Below are positions 6,260 to 39,419 of a stretch of DNA of 64,000 nucleotides, in pieces (the stretch's first letter is position 1; the number at the start of each line of letters is the position of its first letter). Source of the DNA: Hydrolagus affinis (Eukaryota); NCBI GenBank assembly GCA_012026655.1, contig JAAILG010000111.1, forward strand, positions 62,001 to 126,000, in the 5' to 3' direction. The position numbers and the translations under genes are program-made. The notes under the pieces were generated by a model. That model was not told the DNA's origin. It made no database searches and was given only the letters and a program-made list of their open reading frames with translations.

Positions 6260-7025
6260 AAATAATAATAATAATACTAATCCTTTTGGTTTAACACCTT
6301 AGCATGATGAGAGGATGTCTGAAAGTGGTCCACACCAGAAATTAACACCAGAAATTACTGTGAAATGGAGTGATTGTGTATTTGTCGGCAAATGCACCAG
6401 TACAATTGCACACAGCAAGGTCCCACAAAACAGTCATGAAGTGAATGACCAATTTTATTTGGGGGATTGTTGGCCTGGACACCAGGAGAAACTCCCTTCA
6501 TATTTCCAATTTTTCCAACTGAAGAAGCAGGATTTAACATCCCATCCGAAGGATGACACCTCCGATAGTGCAACCACCACCCCACCACCCAGTGCTACAT
6601 TGAAATGTGATTTCAAGTCCAGATAATAATAACAATGATAATAATCTCGCATTTGATACAGCGCTTTTCACATCTTATCAACGTCTCAAAGCGCTTCACA
6701 GAATATACTGTAAAATGAATTGACTGCATATTTGTGGGTGAAATGCGGCAGCCAATTGTGCACAGCAGTGTCCCACAAATAGTCGTGGATTGAAATGACC
6801 AATTTTATTATTGTGGTTTTTTTTGGACACATTATTATCAGGAGTGTGGAGTAAGGAAAGGAAACTTGCCCAAAGTTTCGCCCTGATCTGCCTGGATTCG
6901 AACATAGGACTCATGCTTGTAAGGCGTGTGCTCTAACCACTGAGCTACAGGAGCTCCACAATTTGAACCCACAATCTTCTGACTCGTCCACAGACGAGAG
7001 TGCTACCACTGAGCTAGGCTGACAC
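6260..7025 (-). mobile_element. Old Deu-domain SINE interrupted by a younger SINE
   Basis: Tail at ~6260, Deu core (tttaacatcccatccgaaggatgacacctcc) at ~6530-6570 and tRNA-like head (tgaacccacaatcttctgactc...gagagtgctaccactgagc) at 6960-7025. Confidence 0.7.
6623..6957 (-). mobile_element. Full-length tRNA-derived SINE (SINE2-1_CM-like), nested in a Deu-SINE
   Basis: Pol III A box (TAGCTCAGTGG), B box (GTTCGAATCC), body and (ATT)n tail. Confidence 0.9.
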
Positions 7026-24560: not shown

Positions 24561-25409
24561 GCTATAGCGCCTTTCATGTCAGGAGGAAGAACTGATATTG
24601 TTGACCTACAATAATGTTATACAATATAATTGACTCTTATACAGTACTTTTCATGTTCGGAGCTGAGGGCAGCGAGGACGGGAAAGATGAGCAAAAATGT
24701 GGTTATCTCTCTGATACATGTTTTCAATGATGAGTTTCTCTTCTGACTGTTTATCCTTGGTTTCTGATCCTTTTGAGGAACACAAAATCTGGACTGTCTC
24801 CTTCGGTTAACTAAAGGCAAGTAGTGGGATTCAGGCAATCCCACTTGCTGTAATTCAATGTGATGCATTATATATAAATCAAGCTTTCTTCTCAACCCCA
24901 CTACTCCATCCCCACTTTCTCCCACTGCCTCTTGCAGCATGAAATAATTCCCCAACCAATGAATGAACTGTGATTTGACATGAGATGATAATTCCTTTCA
25001 CATAAATTTCAATAATGGCAAAATATAATCCCAATTAAACAGCCGTTCGGATTTACTCCTACAGTGCTAGAAAATACAGGCGTCCCACCTGACACAAGAT
25101 AATAGGAAAAAAAATTATTTCTACCTTATAAGCTTCCCACAGCTGTATTGATTTTAGATACATTACATTTCAGCGCCTTGGGATGTCTCCCGACGTAAAA
25201 GACGCTCTATAAATGTCATTTTGTTGTTGTTGTTGTTGTTTGTATTTATATTATTTAGTCGTTCAGTAATTTCCACTTTTGAGGACTCGTGATGGACACA
25301 GTTTGGTAGGTTAGAAACACTGAGGCCAATAGTGATGTCAGGCAACAAAAACAGAAATTGCTGGGATCAGTCAGCGGGTCAGGCTGCATCTATGGAGAAA
25401 GGAAAAGTG

Positions 25410-25446
25410 AGTCAACGTTTCGGGTCCACAACCCTTTGTCAGAACT
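25410..25446 (-). ncRNA. Minimal type I hammerhead ribozyme motif (degenerate), second pLTR copy
   Basis: Minus strand agtt-CTGACAA-agggttgtggaccc-GAAA-cgtt-gact. GAAA is intact; the CUGANGA box has G>A at a likely CpG. Confidence 0.7.
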
Positions 25447-25554
25447 AGGTCATGTTGGGATGAAGAGGCTTTTAAGGATTAACAGAGAGAGAGAGGCAGG
25501 GCAAGGAAGACAAGGAGAAAATGGGTAATTTTATAATTATTTTCTAAATAATTG

Positions 25555-25899
25555 TAATAATATAATTATAATAATCCTTGCATTTGATATAGCACTTTTC
25601 ACATCTTATGTGACGTCCCAAAGCGCTTCACAGAATATACTGTAAAGTGAATTGACTGTATATTTGTGGGCGAATCGCGGCAGCCAATTGCGCACAGCAG
25701 TGTCCCACAAACAGTTGTGGATTGAAATGACCAATTTTATTATTGTGGTTTTTTTGGATGGATTATTATTAGACATGTGGAGTAAGGAAACTTGCCCAAG
25801 GTTTCACCCTGATCTGCCTGGATTCAAACACAGGTCTCCCCAGCTTGGTCTCTCCAGCTTGCAAGACAAGTGCTCTAATTACTAAGCCACAGGAGCTCT
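25555..25899 (-). mobile_element. Full-length SINE with 2x14-bp head repeat, nested in Penelope
   Basis: Near-identical to 16658-17011; repeat at 25833-25860. Confidence 0.9.
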
Positions 25900-26073
25900 A
25901 CCTCTTGGGTAGAGGGCAAGAGATGATGGGTTAAAGAGGTGTTAACATTGTGAAACAAAAGGGGTAATTGCACCAAAACTGGAGAGGTGTTAATAACGTT
26001 AAAACAAAAGAGGGGTAAAATTGCCAAAGAACAGGCAGATCAGATGGTCGCAGAAGAGGGGGAAGGTGAGCTG

Positions 26074-26440
26074 CTATGGCCTGAAATTATTGAAATCAAT
26101 ATTAAGGCCAGTGGGCTCTAAAGTCCCTGCAGATAGATAAAGTGTTGTTCCTCGAGCTTGCGCTGCGGTTCATTGGAACAGCGTAGGAGACCATGGATGG
26201 AGAGGTCAGACAGCGAATGGGAAGTAGAGTTGAAATGGCACGAAACCAGTAGGTCAGGATTGTATTTGCGGACAGAACTGAGGTGTTCAGTAATCGGTCA
26301 CCCAATCTGTGTATGGTCTTCCCAATGTAGAGACCATATCGTGAGGAGTGGATGCAGTATACAGTACTACAATCACAGTCTCACATAAAAACTGTGCTTG
26401 GGACCTTGGACAGTGGTTTGGGAAGAGGCAAAAGGGCAGG
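26074..26440 (-). pseudogene. Frameshifted GIY-YIG endonuclease C-terminus of the Penelope ORF
   Basis: Manual translation across frameshifts: VYCIHSSRYGLYIGKTIHRLGDR..EHLSSVRKYNPDLLVSCHFNSTSHS...RKLEEQHFIY..GTLEPTGLNIDFNNFRP*. Confidence 0.85.
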
Positions 26441-26474
26441 TATCCTTAAAAGCCTCTCCCTCCCAACATGCCCC

Positions 26475-26511
26475 AGTTCTGATGAAGGGTAGTGGACCCG
26501 TAACGTTGACT
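26475..26511 (+). ncRNA. Minimal type I hammerhead ribozyme motif (degenerate) in pLTR
   Basis: agtt-CTGATGA-agggtagtggaccc-GTAA-cgtt-gact: stem I agtt/gact, stem II gggt/accc, palindromic ACGT at stem III. GAAA is mutated to GTAA. Confidence 0.7.
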
Positions 26512-28009
26512 CACTTTCCTTTCTCCATAGATGCTGCCTGACCTGCTGAGTGTTCCCAGCAATTTCTGTTTTTGTTTCAGATTTACAGCATCTGCGGTAT
26601 TTTGTGTTTTTGAGTGATGTCAGGCACCCTGGTTAACATCAGGGTTAGGGTTAACTGAACCTATGAATTTAATTTAACTTTCTTAACTTGTTTGGCATAC
26701 CATGTTGTAATACTCCCTGAATCATTAGAGAGTGATACTTTGCATTGTACATTATAACCTCCAGAGAGTTTTGTGGGTTGGCACATTTTCCAATGGTATA
26801 TCTCTTTTCTGACCGCCTGTCCGCAGTGTCTGATCTTTTTGAAGAATGCAAATTCTGAAATACGTTTCCTTTGATTAACTAAAAGCAAGTAGTGGGATTC
26901 AGACATAACCTACATTTCTGCTACATGCAGTAAAGAAATAACATGAAATAAAGTTGGGCAAGAAACTAAAGTCTCCCTGTTTGAACAAGTTGGAAAAATT
27001 ATGAGAAAGCATTGCTACTGAGAGTTATCAAGTTTCATCCACAGATAGCTTCCTGTTTGACTCAAATACCACTTGGTACAAAGCTTCATTATGCTGTAGT
27101 CCACAGACCTTAAAACATTCATATTGCAAAAAGATGGAGAGTCATCTGTAAAGGGATTATAATTTCCTCCTTTGCTACATGCATTAAAACTAATCCAAAT
27201 AAAATTTAGTGTAGTGCACCTCAGAAAACTTAGGCAGGGTGTTTTTTTATGCAGTGATAAGGGCTGTGGTGAAATTCACAACTTGTTTGACCTACATACA
27301 ATTTCCAGCAGGTTTTAGTCGAACATCTTATGGAATGAATTGGATTCTTCCCATCTGGACATAAAAAAAACTGGAAATGCTATGGTCGAAAGTGTGTTCT
27401 TCATGAGTCCAGAATTGACCATACTTGGGGATCCCTCACATATGTTAGATTTATGCAATAAAGCCTTACTGAGAAATCTGCTGGTACCCAGCAGCAAAAT
27501 AATAATAGAAAAGTCAAAGTCATACAGACATTGGAGGTTGAGATAGAAATACAATCGTAACTATTTTATTTGAGACATTTATTACAAAATCAAGTAGTTG
27601 AACATCTGGATAACAATTCTCAACAAAGAGGAATCTTGTAACCCCACTTGAGGCCACTTCTCCGACATCCTACCTGCAGTCATTCAACGTTTTTTATTGC
27701 ACCAATTTTGTTCACAGCCAAATTGTTGTAGCTGATTTTTGTTTGGTCAACCAGGTGTCTGGCACATGTGGAAATCCATAATCATGCTAAAGGGCATCCA
27801 AATCAAACTGAGAATTCCATGCATCCCACATATACTATTTACCTAATTCCATAAAAGTAATAGGTGCAGGTTGGCTAGTCCTGCTTGAGGACTCTAGAGT
27901 GGGCGTTGGCAGTCCTGCTGGAGTCTCACAAGCTAAAAATGTGAAACATCGATTCTTCAAATGTGGACCATCAATCTGTTCCTGAGTAAACTTTGCGCTA
28001 AGAGGCACA

Positions 28010-30532: not shown

Positions 30533-30847
30533 CAATAAAACCTTGTTTATCTGGTACCCAACCAAACGGCATACTCAATCAACCAGTATCTCCCAATACA
30601 ATTCACCATTCTAGCAACCGGATCTCATACCGTAGCCTTCCGGGACACTCGCGGTATGCTCACTTTGCGCACGCTCACTTATTAAACCTGGAATGCTTTT
30701 TTACCGATCATTTTACCGAGGTTGCTGGAATGCTTTATTAATTTTTTGTTGTCAGATTTTCGGCAACTTGCCACTCGAATAACCGGCATATTTGATTAAT
30801 CGGTAACGGTCAGGTCCCGAGGGTGCCGGATAACAAAAGTTGTACTG
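30533..30847. mobile_element. Tigger/pogo-like non-autonomous DNA transposon (MITE)
   Basis: TA-flanked imperfect TIRs: caataaaaccttgtttatctggtaccc versus the reverse complement of the right end cagtacaacttttgttatccggcaccc. CpG-richer than the flanks. Confidence 0.75.
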
Positions 30848-33800: not shown

Positions 33801-35514
33801 GACATCTCAAAGCGCTCCATAGAATATACTGCATGTGAACTGATTGTATATTTTGTGGGAGAACTGTGGCAGCCGATTTCATTATAATAATATAATTAAT
33901 AATATTTGCGTTTGATATAGCATCTTCTCACGGCATTGAGACTTCTGGTCCCGAATTCTAGTTTCAATGGACCAAGCTATTTTGTATGGTATGCTTTTAT
34001 CTGCTCGGCTAGTGGGACCGAGCAGAGACTGACAGGTGATATCTCAGGAGCAGGCAGTATGCTGTATACCAGTGCATTGATAGGGCGAGTAATCCATTGC
34101 ATTGCTATCCTGCCGAATACAAGCACCTCAACAGGAACCAGCAGCCAGCAGCTGGAGGGCAGATTTCATACGGGTCAAGTGTCTGCTTTGCTGCTTCAGA
34201 AGCATGAAATTCCCATTATTTCTGATGCGTCTTCATTGGCTATTATTTTTCCATGACATTGTGAAGTTGCTCCGCGACTCAGACTCCAGTACTGATGGTT
34301 ACTCCTGCGATGCTGTTCACGCTTGTTACAGTTCTAAAACAACTAATTTTAATGTGTTCTCTACCCAAAGAGAAGCATCTTTAATCTACATCTGTTACCC
34401 CAGCAAGTTATTTACTGGAATGATTCCTGGCTTAGTTAGTTCACCGTGACCTTTGTATAGGTTTCATTGTGGTTAGACTTGGTATCTTATCACTTTGATT
34501 TCTTGCTTCACTTTATAATTGTTGGCCCAGATCTGTTGTCTGGTGGTGAGACTAAAAAAAACACACATCCAGCATAATTGCTTAACTTACACCTGACCAC
34601 AGCACAGTGACTCACATTGCCGGCTTGCGCAAAAGTTCCAGCCAAAGTCTTTCTTTCTGTCATTACCTTTTTCTTACTTCTGACAAATTTGTTTATGATT
34701 TGAGCGCAATCCTTAGGAGATTCATTTTCCCATGAGCTGTGGGAACTTGACATCTTTGCTAAGGTTAGAAAGCTATTTCTCCCATTCCCCTCAGTGCATT
34801 CCAGCCTTTGCAAAATTGCACACTCCTGCCCCTCAGGCTTTTGTGTCATTGACTCAATTGTGTGCTTTGTGCAAAAGTACCAGCCCCATCCCCCACTTTC
34901 ATTGAAGCTTATTGTTACCTTCCTTGTTGGTTCTGTACAGAGGCTTTTTGGTCCCATAGCCACGTGGTAAATGCTAGTTAGAAACTATTAATACTGCTGG
35001 TGATCATGCCCGCATCACCCTTTGGTGATCAGCCACCAAAGGATTTGCTCCATTTGCTCCTATTTTCTCAACTTTTTCCAGGTTGCTCAGTTCTAAGGCT
35101 TGATGTTCTCTTGTTCCGTGGACAAAGTTTTCAGCAGCAATTCCAGTAGCCCTCATTCTCATGGGATGGTTTGACTCTTGCTCCACTAGCAAGTTAACAA
35201 ATGAACCTTGAACCTGGGCAGCTGATCCGAAATGACTGTGAAGCCCCTGTTGAATGTCAACAAGACTGAGTCTCTCCTGCTTGGCTCCTGTCAGTGCTTT
35301 CTTATCTCTGGCTCTGACAGCATTAACCTGCATAGATGCATGTTCCACCATCAGCGATGGAAATTCCTTGAAGAAATTAATAGCAATTAAGAAAGAACCA
35401 ATGAGATAGAAATAGATGTATAAAAGGATGATAAGTAGGGAGCCAGTGGTGGCTGGAGAGTTGGAGAACTGACGATGAGCTCTCAATAATAAATGATCCT
35501 TGCATTTGATATAG

Positions 35515-36742: not shown

Positions 36743-37145
36743 TTAGGGGAACAATGAAACCAGTGATACAGCCCAATAGAAGAGTGCCGGAAGTAATAAA
36801 AGAGAGATTAAAAGACGCATTAAACAAAATGGGAAAGGAACAGATTATGAAATAAGTACAGAAACCCACTGACTGGGTGAGTGCCTTAGTGATAGAAAAA
36901 ACAACTAAACCACTAAGAATATGTTTGGACCTGTAACACTTGAACAAGGCAATAAAGAGAGATCACTACAGGATACCCACTTTGGAAGATGTTTGTGCTT
37001 TGGTACATGGAGCTAAATTCTTCTCTACGTTAGACTGCTCATCGGGATACTGGCAGGTCAAGTTGTCAGAAGACAGTGTGTACCTGGCAACATTTTTGAC
37101 TCCATATGGAAGATATTGCTTCATGAGAATACCATTTGGCATAAA

Positions 37146-37177
37146 CAATAACACAAAATACTGTAGATGCTGGAAAT
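37146..37177 (-). mobile_element. 32-bp solo Penelope terminal tail with 14-bp TSD
   Basis: TSD ccatttggcataaa at 37132-37145 and 37178-37191. The reverse complement of the insert matches 26581-26612 at 28/32 positions. Confidence 0.85.
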
Positions 37178-37812
37178 CCATTTGGCATAAAGTCAGCTCG
37201 GGAAGTATTTTTAAAAAATTGACACAACTTAACGAAGGAATTCCAAGTGTCATAAATTATGTTGATGACATTCTAACATATGACAAAACAAGAAAAGAAC
37301 ACGACACATGTTTGGAGAGAGTATTAAGGAACAGCTTGGAAGAAAATGTAAAACTGAATAAAGAAAAATGCAAGAGAGGAGTAACAGAAGTAAGGTATTT
37401 AGGACATATAATCACATAGGAAGGTTGAAAATTGATTCACAGAAGGTGGCAGCAATAACGAAAATGCCTGCGATCGCATACAAAAATGGAATAAAAAGAC
37501 TAATGGGGATGGTAAACTGGGTGGCATGGTTTATTCCAAAGGTAACAGAGGGGACGGAACCAATAAGAGAACTCGTAAAAACTAACAGAGCATTCTTATG
37601 GGGAAAAGAACAGCAGCAAGCATTTAATAAAATAAAAGAGGCCATTACGAAAGATCCGGTATTGAGATTCTAAGATGTACACATGCCAGTTATGATGTCT
37701 GTTGATGCAGGAATAGGAGCCATATTAATACAAAGAAGCAAAGACCATAATGTATACATCAATGGCTTTATCAGAAACCGAGAAAAGATACACCCAAATA
37801 GAAAAGGAATGC

Positions 37813-39109: not shown

Positions 39110-39419
39110 AAAGGACTGCAGAAAGGAAGATGTTGGATATCCAATGGGATAGAAGCAGGTACATTATATAAAAGGATGTTGGGAAGGGAGCCAGGTTTGG
39201 CAAAAGAGTTGGAGAACTGATTGTGAGCTGAGAACAATAAAAAATAATAATAATCCTTGCAATTGATATAGCATTTTTCACGTCTTCTAGACGTCTCAAA
39301 GTGCTTCACAGAATACGCTTGAAAATGAATTGACTGTACATTTATGGGCGAAATGAATAAAAAAGTTCACTTCTACATTTGAGTTGTGAGAATTCTTACA
39401 GTTGTGGACTAAAATTGTT

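Follow-up and report, generated by a model that had tools for sequence, protein, structure and literature searches.

A Penelope-like insertion of 32 bp, confined to the element's tail, in a decayed Gypsy reverse transcriptase

EN+ Penelope-like elements (PLEs) are described, in the excerpts of PMC8557442, PMC3846280 and PMC8969392 used here, as leaving 5'-truncated insertions with an inverted pLTR and an optional tail of 30-40 bp. Truncation is heavy in PLEs, the median new insertion in Chlamydomonas measuring 128 bp according to an excerpt of PMC9977147. In the excerpted part of PMC11167929, the purified protein of anole Poseidon nicked each strand and extended it, and reverse transcription began at two internal sites with the tail lying between them. 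The tail is ascribed there to these two start sites, and in the corresponding excerpt of PMC8557442 to endonuclease resolution of an intermediate.

The insert and its Gypsy host

The DNA analysed, called the window below, is a single stretch of 64,000 nucleotides. It contains a decayed Ty3/Gypsy reverse transcriptase (RT) with the start of an RNase H (36937-37670, plus strand), identified by PF00078 (E 1.2e-19), 51 homologs and the reading frames, together with a PF17919 match under its cut-off (E 4.5e-4). Several stops and frameshifts interrupt it. The LTR-like ends of this element, at about 35380-35500 and 39120-39245, are identical in 86 of 126 aligned columns and are therefore either very old or derived from two different copies; by eye, the element also seems to hold nested LINE fragments.

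Within this RT, a preliminary description of the DNA had reported a 32-bp insert with a clean 14-bp target-site duplication, 28 positions of which match the last 32 nt of a PLE tail, and our analysis agrees on both counts. The two duplication copies (37132-37145 and 37178-37191) form a perfect direct repeat that cannot be extended either way. The 32 bp between them (37146-37177, minus strand) correspond to positions 26581-26612 of a PLE unit in the window, whose coordinates serve below as family positions: the reverse complement aligns there at 28 of 32 positions without gaps, while the second-best place in the window, both strands considered, reaches 21 of 32, and about 1.6e-7 matches as good would be expected by chance. 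Exact repeats of at least 12 bp with a spacer of 15-80 bp occur seven times in the window and those of at least 14 bp twice, this one included in both counts; none of 30 Markov-simulated windows contained a 14-bp repeat at such spacing. A chance tandem duplication inside the Gypsy element was considered and ruled out, the spacer being PLE sequence. Elsewhere in the window, at 30688-30736, a 12-bp exact direct repeat encloses a 25-bp spacer unrelated to the PLE and lacking a related copy in the window, which is possibly another micro-insertion.

The 5' end of the insert falls at 26581, or at 26580 if the single G common to element and duplication (base 37178, a 1-nt microhomology) is counted, and this junction shows one shared base and no added letters. 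The template jump suggested in the preliminary description is without support and, for this event, we reject it, since the junction carries no foreign letters. The 3' end is the base equivalent to 26612 and coincides with the outer of two family-wide 3' ends described below; the letters at this junction, G followed by TTTA, are compatible with the family majority beyond 26610, though at an agreement of only about 0.4. The primer end was probably 37145, the primer side following from the element's orientation. At 26585 the insert carries C, the family-majority letter in contigs of public runs. Compared with the 36-37 nt tail, the first 4-5 nt are absent (3-4 nt if the shared G is counted). The proposal that copying stopped close to the start of the inverted arm agrees with a stop 4-5 nt from the window's arm end.

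The empty site was sought at the protein level, by aligning the 160-residue frame through the insert, left untouched, to the 51 RT homologs. Insert and one repeat copy occupy residues 70-85 of this query. A single gap of 15-16 residues starting at query residues 70-79 is found in 35 of the 51 homologs, split gaps summing to 15 in five, and the remaining 11 lack 10-12 residues in gaps of at least five, so that at least 10 gap residues fall at the insert region in all 51. Since every homolog is without about as many residues there, the 46 bp made up of insert and one duplication copy are, as judged from this alignment, an addition to an older Gypsy RT. The view of the preliminary description that the insertion copied the PLE tail alone, into the Gypsy RT, is upheld by the duplication together with the homolog gaps. 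That description was also right that such an insert is too short for repeat masking: with the 171-bp arm as query the insert scored E = 0.16 in a search space of only 64 kb. When the window was searched by nhmmer for the arm, UTR and ORF piece, the two arms of the large unit and the insert were the only PLE matches at E<1.

The two-armed unit and the 3' ends of its family

The large PLE unit (25345-26612) is flanked by a perfect 14-bp duplication (25331-25344, repeated at 26613-26626), as had been claimed for it, and the duplication is thus of the same length here and at the insert. Its long arm (25345-26441, minus strand) comprises a putative 5'-truncated endonuclease end, seen in translation, a 3' UTR and a tail-less pLTR ending at 25345; its short inverted arm (26442-26612, plus strand, 171 bp) holds a hammerhead-like core and the tail. 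The arms are identical at 122 of 135 positions, and their alignment leaves unpaired a tail of 36-37 nt on the plus strand (26577-26612, or from 26576), flanked by the two family-wide 3' ends. The tail sits on the short inverted arm and the putative endonuclease end on the opposite, minus strand. Inverted pLTR arms, a tail on one arm only and a target duplication are all present in this unit, and its layout is the one published for EN+ PLEs in the excerpts of PMC8557442, PMC3846280 and PMC8969392.

A high-copy SINE-like repeat lies inside the long arm (25562-25898, about 340 bp), with many matches of 84-93% across the window and tRNA hits beside several copies; these Rfam tRNA hits, at 6888, 12178, 20873, 51429 and 53420, may be the heads of the family. 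The decayed and frameshifted endonuclease end is presumably GIY-YIG-like, the pattern having been recognised by eye. In the CCHH motif, likewise read by eye in decayed sequence, the two His are present and the two Cys are not intact. This piece had no Pfam match and no homolog, and its Atlas matches were all below 0.9 and unrelated. The core letters near 26479-26504, compared by eye with the consensus, are what we take to be hammerhead-like; the family majority is A at 26501, within the core, which had no Rfam match at the gathering score and whose folds were not significant against shuffles. The unit is 5'-truncated downstream of the RT, and the truncation point may be the last Cys of a CX2-5CxxC linker upstream of the endonuclease (Neptune/Nematis as against the Poseidon clade), a motif described in that position in an excerpt of PMC8557442.

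Further information about the tail was obtained from contigs of four of 12 public runs (X1, X5, X6 and X8), aligned to 26440-26650 at 80% likeness and yielding 26,557, 25,573, 10,217 and 3,510 contig pieces; of the words sampled from this locus, the 12 runs contain 10-45%. Among the 24 of 976 rows of loose ends listed, on which all loose-end results rest, those running into long AT-rich unlike sequence fall, in every one of the four runs, into an inner group at 26573-26579 and an outer one at 26610. Counts at the inner group, again in the rows listed, are 284, 330 and 222 in X1, 183 and 256 in X5, 80 and 75 plus 34 at 26571 in X6, and 50, 38 and 50 in X8; those at the outer end are 364, 263, 90 and 57 in X1, X5, X6 and X8, and a G follows this pile-up. 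As tail-less 3' ends recur at 26573-26579 in four of four runs, the tail boundary is a family-wide feature. The 5' end of the insert stops 2-8 nt short of the inner 3' ends and 2 nt from the outermost of them (26579). Depth across the tail drops steadily, the profile being shaped by contig overlap and by minority alleles of the window copy. Only X1 and X5 have contigs over the single-copy flank at 26624-26650, the lack of cover in X6 and X8 being uninformative.

Several joints were seen in the same contigs. A 5' boundary and head-to-head joints at 26475-26478, the upstream edge of the hammerhead-like core, are the best supported among the joints listed. A tail-to-tail joint connects a tail-less end at 26576 with a tailed end at 26610 on opposite strands, in one contig each of X1 and X5.

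A 4-bp RNA hairpin with a U-rich loop is predicted at 26565-26581 (plus strand; pair probabilities 0.87-0.96, the fold of the region not being significant against shuffles, z -1.24 and 0.0). Its loop and 3' strand contain the inner 3' ends, and its 3' foot is where the insert stops. Folding the tail by itself gave no significant result either (z -0.3 and -0.4). An acceptor-like pyrimidine tract with CAG at 26578-26580 immediately precedes the first base of the insert. Inner pile-up, hairpin foot and acceptor-like AG thus coincide at the 5' end of the insert, and they are inseparable from one event. The middle of the tail is also complementary to the segment after the hammerhead (26526-26538 with 26586-26594), giving a predicted 9-bp stem with pair probabilities of 0.67-0.99, in which a common family variant at 26529 lies. 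Compared with the 28 nt upstream, the tail agrees at 20 of 28 positions for the insert (108-127 of 5000 shuffles were as good), the corresponding figure for the window's own tail being 522-682 of 5000. The segments 26553-26579 and 26582-26610 are alike, and each of the two family 3' ends coincides with the U-rich end of one of these units, with weak shuffle support; by eye, two short motifs recur at a distance of about 35 nt close to the start region of the Poseidon template printed in the excerpt of PMC11167929.

How the insert may have arisen

The explanation that we prefer, and to which we give about half of our confidence, is that the insert is an ordinary target-primed copy aborted early. 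The element's endonuclease would have made staggered nicks, one in each strand and 14 bp apart, and reverse transcription at the outer site would have been primed by the A-rich 3' end at 37145. Synthesis would then have halted after 32-33 nt, near the inner start site, by ordinary truncation, the cDNA end being joined to the other nick via one shared base and the second arm presumably never made. The stop beside the tail boundary would be a coincidence in a family making many very short copies. This is consistent with a duplication around a site that was ancestrally empty at the protein level, and with a 3' end at an RT start site. Direct target-primed synthesis as a whole, whether its end was set by truncation, by a stall or by splicing, is in our judgement highly probable.

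How large a coincidence is needed was estimated with exponential lengths of median 64-250 nt, within which the 128-nt Chlamydomonas value is borrowed and the others are assumed, none being the family's own. Under this null the probability that at least one of the window's three arms measures 31-38 nt is 0.06-0.20, and about 20% of inserts of 20-60 nt would end at 31-38 nt. The preliminary description had proposed a fixed pause at the tail boundary; the boundary does exist family-wide, in all four runs, while the pause itself depends on one event, for which coincidence has a chance of 6-20%. Two facts speak against coincidence: the insert stops at the 3' foot of the predicted hairpin, and insert and tail-less arm are almost exactly complementary because the stop is only 2 nt from 26579. 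Moreover, the non-random 5' boundaries at 26475-26478, in joints and loose ends, indicate that truncation in this family is not smooth.

Possible, if rather doubtful, is that RT coming from the outer site was halted at the inner site by an obstacle, be it the other protein subunit, the hairpin or cDNA under synthesis, a tail-only insert resulting where the other nick gave no arm. Such a stall would agree with anole Poseidon, for which the excerpt of PMC11167929 gives two start sites bracketing the tail, nicking and extension of both target strands and a predicted dimer. It would also agree with the matching pair of 3' ends in four of four runs, with the large unit, only one of whose arms has a tail, and with an insert ending at 26581/26580, adjoining the 26573-26579 cluster and the hairpin foot. 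An opposite-strand joint of 26520 to 26574, with a short side of 36 and seen in three runs, could be read as a two-armed unit with a tail-only second arm; it could also be a tail-less copy inside an older copy, and it is one of 11 opposite-strand joints in a listing that omits 79 joints. Against a stall, there is one event only, and the tailed arm of the large unit passed the inner site to reach 171 nt. RT would first have to cross the longer predicted stem (26586-26594 with 26528-26536), which makes the 4-bp hairpin alone a poor barrier. The 24 loose-end rows listed of 976, in which 32-nt matches were possibly not aligned, include none with a 5' start at 26577-26581, and the sole 5' boundary with a long unlike flank among these rows is 26476, the hammerhead edge, in run X8. 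If the rows were ranked by count within each run and 32-nt matches were aligned, tail-boundary starts per base would number fewer than 189, 165, 34 and 37, bounds that are too loose to decide when set against outer ends of 364, 263, 90 and 57.

An unlikely origin, and one not raised in the preliminary description, is a short fold-back two-armed unit that lost its paired arms by hairpin removal, during integration or later, leaving the unpaired tail. Deletions are promoted at the base of inverted repeats, the family does include short two-armed units joined head to head (26475-26478 linked to 26507-26522 on opposite strands), and removal of the paired part would give almost exactly the insert observed. 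However, no remnant of an arm separates the tail from the duplication copy beside it, homology there could amount to no more than 1-2 nt, neither copy of the duplication is damaged, and no intermediate was seen. Capture of a fragment at a staggered break, not via the element's machinery, would have found donors in plenty in so abundant a family (3,510-26,557 contig pieces per run). Arbitrary ends are expected of a captured fragment, whereas this insert has its 3' end on the family's outer end and a duplication as long as that of the other PLE unit, and we think capture very improbable. Least credible of all is an end defined by splicing, with a spliced or cleaved RNA as template and the insert beginning after the acceptor-like site at 26578-26580. 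Of the 15 upstream bases 13 are pyrimidines, the site is among the two best of nine AG sites in the arm, and a pLTR intron is known in Drosophila Penelope (excerpt of PMC2377424); yet the strand is pyrimidine-rich throughout, the upstream-exon letters expected from a spliced template are not present, and the excerpted accounts place the tail of the Adineta and anole elements within the start of the ORF.

Meaning and comparison with known systems

We return to early-aborted target-primed copying as our working explanation, under which the insert is a 5'-truncated PLE copy, a type of insertion already known, at its extreme. A pause at the tail boundary and an abundance of tail-only inserts are plausible, a single case being insufficient for a preferred stop. 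We advance only tentatively the broader idea that tail-only inserts are a hidden, abundant class of PLE product, in which the halves of a dimer would prime at two sites of a single RNA, a degenerate 30-nt repeat unit ending at each site, and the RT from the outer site would stall at the inner one. If this were true, thousands of unmasked, duplication-flanked inserts of 30-37 bp would record how tail and inverted arms form. A peak of tail-only inserts would bear on whether both primings use one RNA-protein complex and would also expose a class of small insertions missed by repeat masking; without a peak at 30-37 nt, the insert would merely be the short end of known truncation.

In L1 twin priming and extreme 5' truncation, two nicks can each prime synthesis, producing inverted arms and microhomology joints. 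The present family differs in that it has no poly(A) tract and that both primings start at fixed internal sites. Searches for the tail motif gave nine matches in viral contigs, all without PLE context and judged to be chance, and none in metagenome contigs, where the conserved pLTR motif was not found either; prokaryote genomes gave no match. Excerpts of the PLE literature, including PMC4209133, PMC2377424 and bioRxiv 10.64898/2026.07.22.740005, contain no description of tail-only insertions that we could find.

Like the EN+ PLEs in the excerpts of PMC8557442, PMC3846280 and PMC8969392, this family combines a target duplication and strong 5' truncation with two inverted arms of which only one is tailed, and has a putative hammerhead-like core in the pLTR. 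Those excerpts mention the tail solely as something that prolongs a larger unit, whereas here it is the entire insert. The 34-37 bp repeat of Drosophila virilis Penelope (excerpt of PMC2377424) is a terminal piece of like length, present in one or two copies; it stands at pLTR ends and ORF flanks and is not a free insertion as here. In the main text of PMC11167929, as excerpted, no tail-only product is reported for Poseidon of Anolis carolinensis, which nevertheless resembles this family in its two fixed 3' ends about 35 nt apart around the tail, its AT-rich flanks and its inner ends within a predicted stem-loop. The start regions differ: those of Poseidon are AC-rich, while here they are rich in U on the hammerhead-sense strand. 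The two family-wide 3' ends fit the two RT start sites published for anole Poseidon in that excerpt, and the two-site pattern thereby reaches a family whose start regions are U-rich, not AC-rich.
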